This document shows, one piece after another, positions 5,612 to 10,216 of a stretch of DNA of 32,000 bases. Numbering within the stretch: position 1 is the first letter of the stretch; each line of letters begins with the position of its first letter. A program made the position numbers and the translations under genes. Under the pieces are notes generated by a model that searched no databases, was not told where the DNA came from, and worked only from the letters and a program-made list of their open reading frames with translations. This DNA is from Candidatus Electrothrix sp. GW3-4 (lineage in GTDB: Bacteria; Desulfobacterota; Desulfobulbia; Desulfobulbales; Desulfobulbaceae): assembly GCF_037902255.1 (NCBI RefSeq), contig NZ_CP147990.1, positions 3,240,001 through 3,272,000 of the forward strand, given 5' to 3'.

Positions 5612-8600
5612 ATGATACCGGGAGGAATAGCAGACAAGCTGGGCAACCGCTACGAAGCTAAATGGCTGGTGCGGCTTGCTATGGAAGTGCTTGCCGGTAA
5701 AGCGGATTGGTTGCTTTTTGAAGGGGTTGAGTCTGCATTCCAAGGTTTTGAATTCGCTGTCGGCAGGAAGGAAATCACCGAGTGGCACCAGACCAAGATC
5801 AACTCCCCGCAAGGTAACTGGACAATCAATGCCCTGAAAACTGAAAAAATCTTCCAAGCCTTTGCAAATCGTTTAGCAGCGGATGAACATGCCCGCTGCT
5901 TTTTTGTTTCTCAGGATAATGCCAAGGACTTCAGAACGCTGACAGAAAAAGCGCAGCTTGCCAACTCCGTTGAGCAATATCTGGATAATCTTGCTGAAAA
6001 ACAGAAAAAGTCATTCCAAGAACTCAAAGATGCGTGGAATCCGTCTGATGAACTTGTTTTTAACTGGCTCAAGCGAAGCCGGGTTGAGATAATTCGAGAA
6101 AGAGAACTTGATTCCCTGAATGAATCCTACGGCGACCTGTATTTTCATCAAGGCGGCAAGAGTGCCTTCCCTAATCTGCGCGATCTTCTTGAACAACATT
6201 TCAACAAGAAACTGACCACAGAAGGTCTACGCAACGCTGTCAAAGAGCAGGGCATTCTCCAGTTTAAGGAATGGGCTTTTGATCCGTCCATTCCGCAACG
6301 TTTGCAGGAGGAGAGCGAAGCATATCTCGGCACGTACACGCCTTTCGGTATGGGCGGCGAGACAATTGCCCGAAATCAGGCCGATCAGATTCTTGATGAA
6401 CTGCACAAACACGACGGCCCGGAATTGATTCTGTTGACCGGCGTTGCCGGTTCAGGGAAATCCGGTGTCATTCGCAGCGTGATGCAGCACCTGCGCGAAG
6501 CCGAAGTTCCGCATCTTGCTTTCAGGGTTGATCAACATTTGGACTGCGCCACCAGAGAAGAGCTGGGCGAACGGCTGACAGGTCGGAAAGAAAGTCCAGT
6601 CAGCACCTTGAAGGGGAGGTTTCCGGCAGAACCTTCTGTGCTGATCATAGATCAGGTGGACGCGGTCAGCGAGGTTTCCGGTCGTGAAGGGCAGGTGAAA
6701 GAGGTTCTTTTTCGCCTGATACGCGATGCCGATCATTTTGGTGGCATAAAAATTATTGCTGCGTGCAGAACCTTTGATTTTGACAGTGATGCACGAATCA
6801 AAGAGCTGCAACAAAAGGAACTAACCAAAAAGATAGAAGTTCCTCTGCTTGACTGGAAAAGCGAGGTTGAACCGCTGCTGCGGAAAAAGACAATTGAGAC
6901 CTCGCATTTCAGCCAACCGCAACGTGACCTGCTTTGCCTGCCGGTCAATCTTGCCGTTTTCCTGGAGATTGACGAGCCGGAGCTTGCCTTTCATTCTCGT
7001 GCAACCCTGCATGAAAAGCTGATTGAGAAAAAACAACGCCAACTGCCCAAGGGCTTGCAATGGTCTTTGGTGCAACCCTTGAACAGCATCTGCGAATGGA
7101 TGAGCAAACGGCAGAAGCTGAGTGCGCCTGTTGTTGTGCTCGACGATTTTCCCGGTGCTGCGGATATCCTCGCTTCCGAAGGCCTGATTGTTTCCTCCCG
7201 TGGGCAGGTCAACTTCTTTCATGAGAGTTTCTTTGACCACATCTATGCCCGGTCATTTTTAAAGAATGAGCAGAGCATGGTCGAATGGCTAACCGCAACG
7301 GAGCAACATCTTTTCCGCCGAACCCAAGTGCGCCAGATTTTGGAAGCGTTGCGACGGAATGATGATCAGCGGTATGTAGAAGAGCTTGCCTCGCTACTGC
7401 AAAGTGAGAGCGTCCGCTTTCATGTGAAAGCAGCCATCTGTCAATGGTTGGGTTCTATTGATGAGCCGACGGAAGAGGAATGGCAGATTATTTCCCGCTG
7501 TGATGATCAGGACGGAGCGTTTCCCCTCCTGTTCCGTTATGCGGTTTTATCCAGCTCTGCTGCGTGGTTTGATCTGCTCAACAGGAAAAAATGGATTGAG
7601 CGGCAACTTGCGCATGACAATCAGGAGCGGGTGGAAAGCATCTTTTCCTGGCTGTCGTTGATTGCCGGGAAACGACCGGCTGAAGTTGCGACAATCCTGC
7701 GCTCATGGTGGGGCGATGATCTGCAACGAGCTGAACGGCTTCTTCGGTGGTTCCATCTTTCCCACTGGACCAAACCTGCCAAATCTTGCAGGCCGTTGTT
7801 TGAGCTTTGCGAAGAAATCATCCGCTCACATCCGGCAGTTCTGTTTCAACAGCAGCATGATCATTTTCTCGTGTTGCTTCTGAATAATTGGGCAAACGAG
7901 CTGCCCGAATTAGGGGGAAGAATTCTGCAGGTTGTTTTCGATGCTTGGTTTGTAGCGCATCCGGGAAAACTGCCTTTCGGTGATGACGAATTTAAAATTA
8001 TCGAACGTCATGACAGTCATACACTTGCAGAGTTTGCTGAAAAAGCACCGTCTGCATTCCTTGCAGGAGCAACAGAATTTTTTGTCCGCTGTGTGGATAT
8101 GGTGCTTGCGGAAGGAAAAGAAGGAAGAGGTTGGTATGAATTGAACTCCAGAACCTATTCTGGAGATCATTTTGGATCGGATCAATTCCTCAGTATTTAT
8201 CGAAGTGCTCTCAAAAAGACAGCGAAACAACAACCAGATGAGACAGGGAGATATCTTAACCGACTTGCCCCGCACAAACATGAATGCCTGATGCATTTGC
8301 ATTTGGAGACGATTGAGGCCAATCCAGAAAAATTCAGCCACAGCCTGCCCGGCCTTTCCCGAAATGAAATGGTTTTAAAAGCTGGCTATGATGGCGCAAG
8401 ATGGTTCTCCTTTGCCCATGCCTGTAAGGCCGCTTTCCCCTTTCTGGACTTAACGGAAAAACAAAAGATAGAGCAGGTTATTCTTGCTTATGTCCCGGAA
8501 ATTGATTTCGCATCCCATATCCTTGAAGAAATCAGACAAGGAGAAAATTTATGGGAATGGACAAAGAAAAGTGCTATTTATCGGCTAAATGAATCAAGAT

Positions 8601-10216: not shown

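Follow-up and report, generated by a model that had tools for sequence, protein, structure and literature searches.

The region behind lepA in Candidatus Electrothrix sp. GW3-4 raises the question of what kind of protein is encoded by the long gene that directly follows this housekeeping gene, and of how that gene came to stand there. The window considered in this work comprises 32,000 nucleotides (nt) of contig NZ_CP147990.1 (assembly GCF_037902255.1, positions 3,240,001 to 3,272,000 of the forward strand), and the open reading frame (ORF) in question codes for a protein of 1534 amino acids (aa). A previous sequence-only reading, made from the letters of the window and a list of its ORFs, had proposed an Avs-like phage-sensing nuclease and had left its clade undecided. 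Here, profile comparisons, structure prediction and analysis of genomic context were applied to this protein and its homologs. We conclude, with a probability of roughly 0.8, that it is a divergent Cap4-type member of Avs7 outside the EF-Tu-associated subclade, acting as a single-protein antiphage receptor with a mechanism like that of the Salmonella enterica protein SeAvs7. The Avs7 system is already described, and the gene in the window adds an example of it, not a new system or new biology.

Domain architecture and homology to SeAvs7

Three structures of SeAvs7 are available: 9N00, 9N01 and 9YIX, representing the apo, monomeric-complex and tetrameric forms, respectively (Lee et al., bioRxiv 10.64898/2026.01.04.697583; Nature 2026, PMC13581612). 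SeAvs7, the prototype of Avs7 (antiviral STAND 7), joins a Cap4 PD-(D/E)xK nuclease to a STAND NTPase and to a helical sensor, bilobed and sharply bent, which envelops the major capsid protein of the phage; the tetramer degrades double-stranded DNA (dsDNA), and the host EF-Tu serves as a structural enhancer (PMC13581612). In the active tetramer, R395 contacts the gamma-phosphate of ATP, and in the autoinhibited state H545 contacts the beta-phosphate of ADP (PMC13581612). Supplementary Table 7 of Lee et al. lists 3272 Avs7 sequences as verified; the effectors vary within the family, and EF-Tu is bound only by a group of 192 among 1757 homologs (PMC13581612).

A sequence search of the PDB with the window protein yielded a sole match at E <= 1, namely 9n00_A, a 1523-aa "AAA family ATPase" that is SeAvs7. 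With phmmer, the single protein was aligned to 9N00 over residues 271-634 (E 1e-17), and a profile built from 38 homologs matched it in two collinear segments, residues 3-655 with 3-658 and residues 1005-1121 with 992-1107 (E 3.7e-31). For profile-profile comparison, relatives of SeAvs7 were retrieved with the alignment-derived part of its sequence, and the resulting fragments, none longer than 1148 aa, were tiled and aligned to give a SeAvs7-clade profile, the C-lobe of which was deepened by a further C-lobe search. The hhalign alignment with the SeAvs7 clade covers 1039 columns (99.9%, E 9.3e-35) and extends from the nuclease across the NTPase to the middle of the sensor. Taken by itself, the sensor (aa 640-1534) was aligned at 94.6% (E 7e-8), and under relaxed settings this alignment was collinear over 743 columns, reaching the C-terminus. 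Residues 980-1534 matched the deepened C-lobe profile over 456 columns ending at the last residue (96.3%, E 1.8e-9). A transitive route led to the same C-lobe: two proteins that match the sensor profile of the window protein at more than 324 bits were linked by BLASTP to the SeAvs7 clade, P0490 with E 9e-10 over 520 columns and P0463 with E 1e-4 in an alignment reaching the C-terminus. Homology of the sensor was judged here by hhalign and transitive BLASTP; Lee et al. searched for Avs7 sensors by iterated PSI-BLAST with E <= 0.001 and at least 70% coverage (PMC13581612). Through the collinear alignment with 9N00, the clade that had been left open can now be named as Avs7.

The models and alignments describe a tripartite single protein of about 1500 aa with an effector, a central STAND NTPase and a C-terminal helical sensor; the effector-STAND-sensor layout proposed from the sequence is supported, the three parts having been verified by a combination of hhalign, Foldseek and AlphaFold2 (AF2). 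The Cap4 domain alone (aa 1-250) was aligned by hhalign to the Cap4 part of the SeAvs7 clade over 211 columns (97.4%, E 1.4e-11); it is, as predicted, a nuclease of the restriction-endonuclease type. In this region E37 lies opposite an Asp, whereas Q60 and K62 lie opposite the QxK of SeAvs7. As for the N-terminal pattern that had suggested a nuclease, E37, E47 and Q60-T-K62 are indeed present, but the segment GNRYE (residues 11-15) has the spacing G-x-x-Y-E rather than the G-x-Y-E first given. The Walker A, Walker B and IIAACRT motifs were all found as described, at residues 277-284, 343-350 and 381-387, respectively. R386, within the last of these, aligns with R395 of SeAvs7, and H537 aligns with H545. 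In an alignment of 38 full-length homologs, which reaches down to 41% identity and has a mean column identity of 52% across the full length, E37, E47, Q60, K62, K283, D347 and H537 do not vary, and at least 90% of the sequences keep R386, which is invariant in a 13-sequence N-terminal alignment. Because these residues are conserved across the 38 homologs, the motif pattern is a conserved feature and not a product of chance. Among general domain collections, Pfam gave for the full protein only sub-threshold matches to nSTAND5, AAA_16, NACHT and NB-ARC at residues 251-400, and NCBIfam gave no match to the full protein.

AF2 models were computed for two overlapping pieces, aa 1-640 and aa 561-1534. 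For the first of them (pLDDT 79.8), the best Foldseek matches were Avs4 (8DGF, 4.4e-14) and Avs3 (8DGC, 3e-12), with TM-scores of 0.28-0.29, followed by NLRP3, NLRC4, NLRP9 and Apaf-1. The PDB library used for Foldseek (release cut-off 2026-04-08) does not contain 9N00; therefore, Avs3 and Avs4 are the nearest entries present and not the true nearest relatives. The presence of NLRP3, NLRC4 and Apaf-1 among the matches, together with the homology to SeAvs7, identifies the NTPase as a STAND protein and not as a non-STAND housekeeping ATPase. The second model (974 residues, pLDDT 81.6, pTM 0.52) is a wholly helical solenoid. The helical repeats expected in the C-terminal part were thereby recovered, over about 900 aa (~640-1534) and not over the approximately 1100 aa estimated by eye.

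Proposed activation and competing assignments

The window protein and SeAvs7 are similar in length (1534 vs 1523 aa), share the order of Cap4, STAND and helical sensor, and are collinear in profile comparison from residue 3 to the C-terminal helix; the QxK and acidic residues of the nuclease, Walker A and B, the ATP-contacting Arg and the ADP-contacting His are all kept. They differ in their hosts, a cable-bacterium-like member of the Desulfobulbaceae for the window protein and an enterobacterium for SeAvs7. By analogy with SeAvs7, its resting state would be an autoinhibited ADP-bound monomer with the ADP held by H537. The sensor would envelop a newly made structural protein of the phage, most likely the major capsid protein of the HK97 fold, since the sensor of SeAvs7 and the very distant sensor of EcDsr1 both respond to major capsid protein. 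The two sensor lobes would then clamp, releasing the NTPase, and ADP would be exchanged for ATP contacted by R386, K283 and D347. Tetramerisation would proceed through the Cap4 nuclease domains, and the assembled nuclease would degrade dsDNA, so that the infection is aborted. The trigger, the oligomeric state with its stoichiometry and the DNA-degrading outcome are in each case those that SeAvs7 would predict.

Several observations weigh against this assignment. The identity to SeAvs7 is as low as ~12-22% in the profile alignments. Residues 1100-1534 alone did not match the SeAvs7 clade significantly (E 0.024 with the deepened profile, E 0.25 earlier), though they remain collinear with it up to a terminal motif of similar form, D-x-[LM]-L...G-V...[DE]-R-[WP]-end. 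The residues by which SeAvs7 contacts EF-Tu (Q999, D1003, K1044, H1048 and D1059) correspond in the profile alignment to consensus positions of the L/K/S/K/S type. Because these five residues are not conserved, the clade of the window protein is placed outside the 192-member EF-Tu-associated subclade, in which respect it differs from SeAvs7, and the EF-Tu part of the SeAvs7 mechanism probably does not transfer. The PADLOC models, including those for Dsr1, gave no match at E <= 10 when applied to 11 sensor sequences. Comparison of the sensor model with the Foldseek library, which lacks 9N00, retrieved just generic HEAT/ARM solenoids (CAND1, karyopherins); the check that had been proposed for the C-terminal sensor accordingly upheld the helical solenoid and returned generic HEAT matches only. 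Finally, a Pfam search with aa 1-260 found nothing relevant, and DUF4297, one of the nuclease types to which the N-terminus had been likened, was not recognised.

Some of these observations would fit a protein that has the architecture and activation chemistry of Avs7 and a sensor tuned to a different trigger, either another phage protein or a protein of a mobile element. The C-lobe taken alone is barely similar to that of SeAvs7, the Dsr1 models of PADLOC do not match the sensor and the EF-Tu interface is not conserved; moreover, Lee et al. note alternative activators for other Avs families and a sensory repertoire that is still open (PMC13581612). We consider this reading a serious possibility, though less likely than not, since the sensor is collinear with that of SeAvs7 all the way up to the conserved helix at its end, and since the response of both SeAvs7 and the very distant EcDsr1 to capsid protein makes the trigger class appear conserved over wide divergence. 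Dsr1 (defence-associated sirtuin 1) shares the sensor type of Avs7 and likewise responds to the major capsid protein (Lee et al., PMC13581612). Via the homology of its sensor to SeAvs7, the window protein falls into the same broad helical sensor class, and it differs from Dsr1 in combining Cap4 with STAND, whereas in Dsr1 the effector is SIR2 and a STAND NTPase is lacking.

The fold matches of the N-terminal half could also be taken to indicate an Avs3- or Avs4-type protein sensing terminase or portal instead of an Avs7. SeAvs3 (8DGC) and EcAvs4 (8DGF) likewise have a nuclease joined to a STAND NTPase, and aa 1-640 had no better fold match in the library; SeAvs3 also has a Cap4 nuclease, which is activated by tetramerisation (PMC13581612). 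However, these matches came from a library without 9N00 and have low TM-scores; neither 8DGC nor 8DGF was found in the PDB sequence searches at E <= 1, in which SeAvs7 alone was found, and the sensor model had no Foldseek match to the sensors of Avs3 or Avs4, proteins that differ from the window protein in their sensors and in their triggers, terminase and portal. In the absence of detectable sequence similarity to either protein this assignment was rejected, and we regard it as highly improbable.

Among the PADLOC models, the best match to the full protein was PDC-M54A (52.9 bits, 2.8e-15), with residues 187-555 aligned to profile positions 231-615 of 1621. The protein sizes are similar, and the match is confined to the NTPase region. 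PDC-M54 is a multi-gene candidate in PADLOC, whereas the gene in the window stands alone, and no conserved partner gene was seen across the homolog contexts examined. A literature search on PDC-M54 found nothing.

The lepA junction and the distribution of the family

The start codon of the avs gene (ATG at 5612) lies 18 nt past the TAG stop codon of lepA (5591-5593), as had been read from the sequence, and a consensus scan of this spacer revealed no promoter-like and no terminator-like site, in accord with the earlier statement that no terminator separates the two genes. Given the short spacer and the lack of a promoter or terminator in it, the avs gene is probably expressed via read-through from lepA, as far as the spacer by itself indicates. 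The lower GC content of the gene was also confirmed (48.5% vs 55.1% in lepA overall; 0.481 vs 0.687 at third codon positions, GC3), but the contrast had been overstated at 38-48% vs about 65%. The toxin-antitoxin pair further downstream has GC3 values of 0.46-0.49, near that of the avs gene, and the flanking cysZ-like gene and thrC have values of 0.71 and 0.65, respectively. The flanking genes are 92-96% identical to their counterparts in Ca. Electrothrix sp. Rat3, and lepA is 96% identical.

Three genomes have homologous lepA-avs junctions. Apart from that of the window, these are GCA_024449855.1, whose Avs protein is 82% identical, and Ca. Electrothrix sp. Rat3, where the identity is 74%; both have a spacer of just 4 nt. 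In contrast, the avs gene is missing behind lepA at each of 80 loci sampled from related species (lepA 59-88% identical). The upstream order greA-degT-sigma-lepA is kept across Desulfobulbales, including loci without the avs gene, and the genes 3' of lepA vary among the related genomes, examples being an EngB-like GTPase with a convergent hisG and a GNAT acetyltransferase. Close homologs of the Avs protein were encountered at other loci: in Ca. Electrothrix scaldis (73% identity) the gene comes after a MazEF pair, a 76% identical homolog follows a PDDEXK_2/Rpn-like gene, and a 78% identical one follows ubiA near a DNA methyltransferase. The avs gene is accessory and was inserted where synteny breaks at the 3' end of lepA; the sequence-only reading had named synteny with lepA across the order as the sign of a core gene, and no such synteny was found among the 80 loci, the homologs with 73-78% identity being located at other loci. 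The loci L009, L014 and L015 (~9800-12000 in each) show this synteny break at the 3' end of lepA across Desulfobulbales. No lepB homolog was identified among the ORFs scanned downstream of lepA in the Desulfobulbales loci.

The least probable reading, that of a housekeeping or regulatory STAND ATPase tied to lepA as a core gene of the lineage, might draw on the tight spacer (18 nt, and 4 nt in two relatives), the junction homologous in three genomes and the lack of an own promoter in the spacer scan, but it was rejected on the 80 lepA loci of related species, all of them without the gene, and on the differing contexts of the 73-78% identical homologs, and it is further at odds with the patchy distribution that includes plasmids, the deviant GC3 and the conserved nuclease effector.

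A functional tie to lepA can be imagined for the Avs7-type protein as well. Because SeAvs7 uses EF-Tu as a cofactor, the window clade lacks the EF-Tu interface and the coupling to lepA is tight, LepA/EF4 might substitute for EF-Tu, or the gene might be tuned to lepA expression, in cable bacteria. What speaks for this idea is adjacency in one sublineage, and we hold it to be very unlikely. If true, such a coupling would connect the detection of capsid protein with the translational state of these cells.

A word-indexed search identified 345 homologs, nearly all of about 1525 aa. Their hosts comprise Ca. Electrothrix (73-74% identity), other Thermodesulfobacteriota, Mesorhizobium, Rhizobium and Sinorhizobium (including plasmids), Hahella, Sessilibacter, Fibrobacterales and others; the distribution is patchy over Thermodesulfobacteriota, Alpha- and Gammaproteobacteria and Fibrobacterales. 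With a profile of the sensor by itself, an exhaustive search retrieved 2916 cluster representatives at E <= 0.001, including 985 at E <= 1e-30. There were 87 full-length proteins among the top 150 sensor matches, with a Cap4-like N-terminus (not SIR2) in 85 and Walker A in 84 of them. The contexts of distant homologs are diverse. One adjoins PIN/Phd and PemK modules and a SLFN-like helicase; another, in L006, is accompanied by a phage-type integrase that is followed by an AAA_15 ATPase and a RloB-like protein (5274-7999), the last ending directly before the avs start; a third, in L093, has a TIR_2-domain protein nearby (401-1390); and some are situated in unrelated metabolic neighbourhoods. 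The avs gene is thus accessory and moves horizontally, in defence-type neighbourhoods, and its family resembles Avs7 in being large and horizontally moving.

Neighbouring features and significance for the family

The features of the avs gene and its surroundings are collected in Table 1.

Table 1. Features of the lepA-avs region, in coordinates of the 32,000-nt window
Feature	Position	Strand	Basis or remark
lepA (EF4)	3764..5593	+	Pfam GTP_EFTU 1.5e-54, LepA_C 1.7e-47; housekeeping, immediately upstream of the avs gene
lepA-avs spacer, 18 nt, AAAAGAGGTCGCTGCCGG	5594..5611	+	AAGAGG Shine-Dalgarno-like motif inside
Whole Avs7-type gene, 1534 aa	5612..10216 (including stop codon)	+	ORF; homologs mostly full length
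Cap4-type PD-(D/E)xK nuclease effector, ~aa 1-250	5612..6361	+	Domain-only hhalign vs SeAvs7-clade Cap4; invariant residues
Putative catalytic residues E37, E47, Q60-T-K62	5720-5722, 5750-5752, 5789-5797	+	Conservation; SeAvs7 alignment
STAND NTPase module (NBD-HD1-WHD), ~aa 251-640	6362..7531	+	phmmer vs 9N00; sub-threshold Pfam; Foldseek
Walker A GVAGSGKS, G277-S284 (K283)	6440-6463	+	
Walker B VLIIDQVD, V343-D350 (D347)	6638-6661	+	
R386 in IIAACRT (381-387)	6767-6769	+	
WHD histidine H537 in FFHESFFD	7220-7222	+	
All-alpha helical-repeat sensor, ~aa 641-1534	7532..10213	+	AF2 model aa 561-1534; hhalign
Strongly conserved sensor block G1080-F1100	8849-8911	+	GGAxxLAxELQ...PxRF aligns with SeAvs7 GGEREVGWQLREASSRHPSRF
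Terminal sensor helix, ~aa 1523-1534	10178-10213	+	
Sigma-70-like promoter TTGACA-18-TAGAAT ahead of the toxin-antitoxin pair	10310..10339	+	11/12 consensus matches; consensus match only
Phd/YefM-type antitoxin	10389..10622	+	Pfam PhdYeFM_antitox 1.1e-8
PIN (VapC-type) toxin	10622..11053	+	Pfam PIN 4.5e-13

The VapBC module that had been noted behind the avs gene was recovered as a Phd/YefM-type antitoxin and a PIN toxin, the genes of which overlap in TGATG. This toxin-antitoxin pair is a unit separate from the avs gene and probably represents co-acquired accessory DNA. Ca. Electrothrix sp. Rat3 has an antitoxin that is 100% identical as a protein (14685-14915 of its locus) but stands as an orphan, with no PIN toxin beside it, and GCA_024449855.1 has PDDEXK_2 and MEKHLA genes in place of the pair.

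Other parts of the window and of the compared loci also contain unusual genes. A 609-aa protein with a Het-C-like domain (PF07217, 2.1e-10) is encoded at 14577-16406 (+) and has a counterpart of 60% identity at the same position in GCA_024449855.1; a domain of this type is unusual for a bacterium. At 18320-20088 (-), an ORF of 439 aa with a DUF4277 domain (1.7e-4) lies next to one of 150 aa, in a stretch with a GC content of 0.38-0.45. DUF4277 is of the kind that IS-family transposases have at their N-terminus, and the stretch is probably an insertion sequence. Further on, an island at 25400-29000 has a GC content of ~0.41 and GC3 of 0.27-0.31, vs ~0.65-0.70 in core genes. It contains an ORF of 598 aa with a caspase Peptidase_C14 domain (26311..28107, +; 4.8e-6) and, overlapping it, an ORF of 289 aa with no Pfam match (28104..28973, +); this caspase-domain island is possibly a further module acquired for defence or abortive infection. 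Precomputed Pfam annotation of Ca. Electrothrix sp. Rat3 places an intein with a LAGLIDADG homing endonuclease domain in dnaB (1-2188 of its locus), which lies upstream of the syntenic block.

For the family, the assignment means that a large group of proteins labelled "ATP-binding protein" or "hypothetical" in databases is now assigned to the Avs7 pattern-recognition receptors, and that the clade of the window protein is one missed by current Pfam, NCBIfam and PADLOC models. Cable-bacterium-like Desulfobulbaceae and rhizobial plasmids are thereby added, among other lineages, to the range of Avs7, and activation by capsid protein becomes a testable prediction for hosts whose phages are almost unknown. 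Its coupling to lepA is a curiosity of a single sublineage; the gene itself points to antiphage immunity in cable bacteria.

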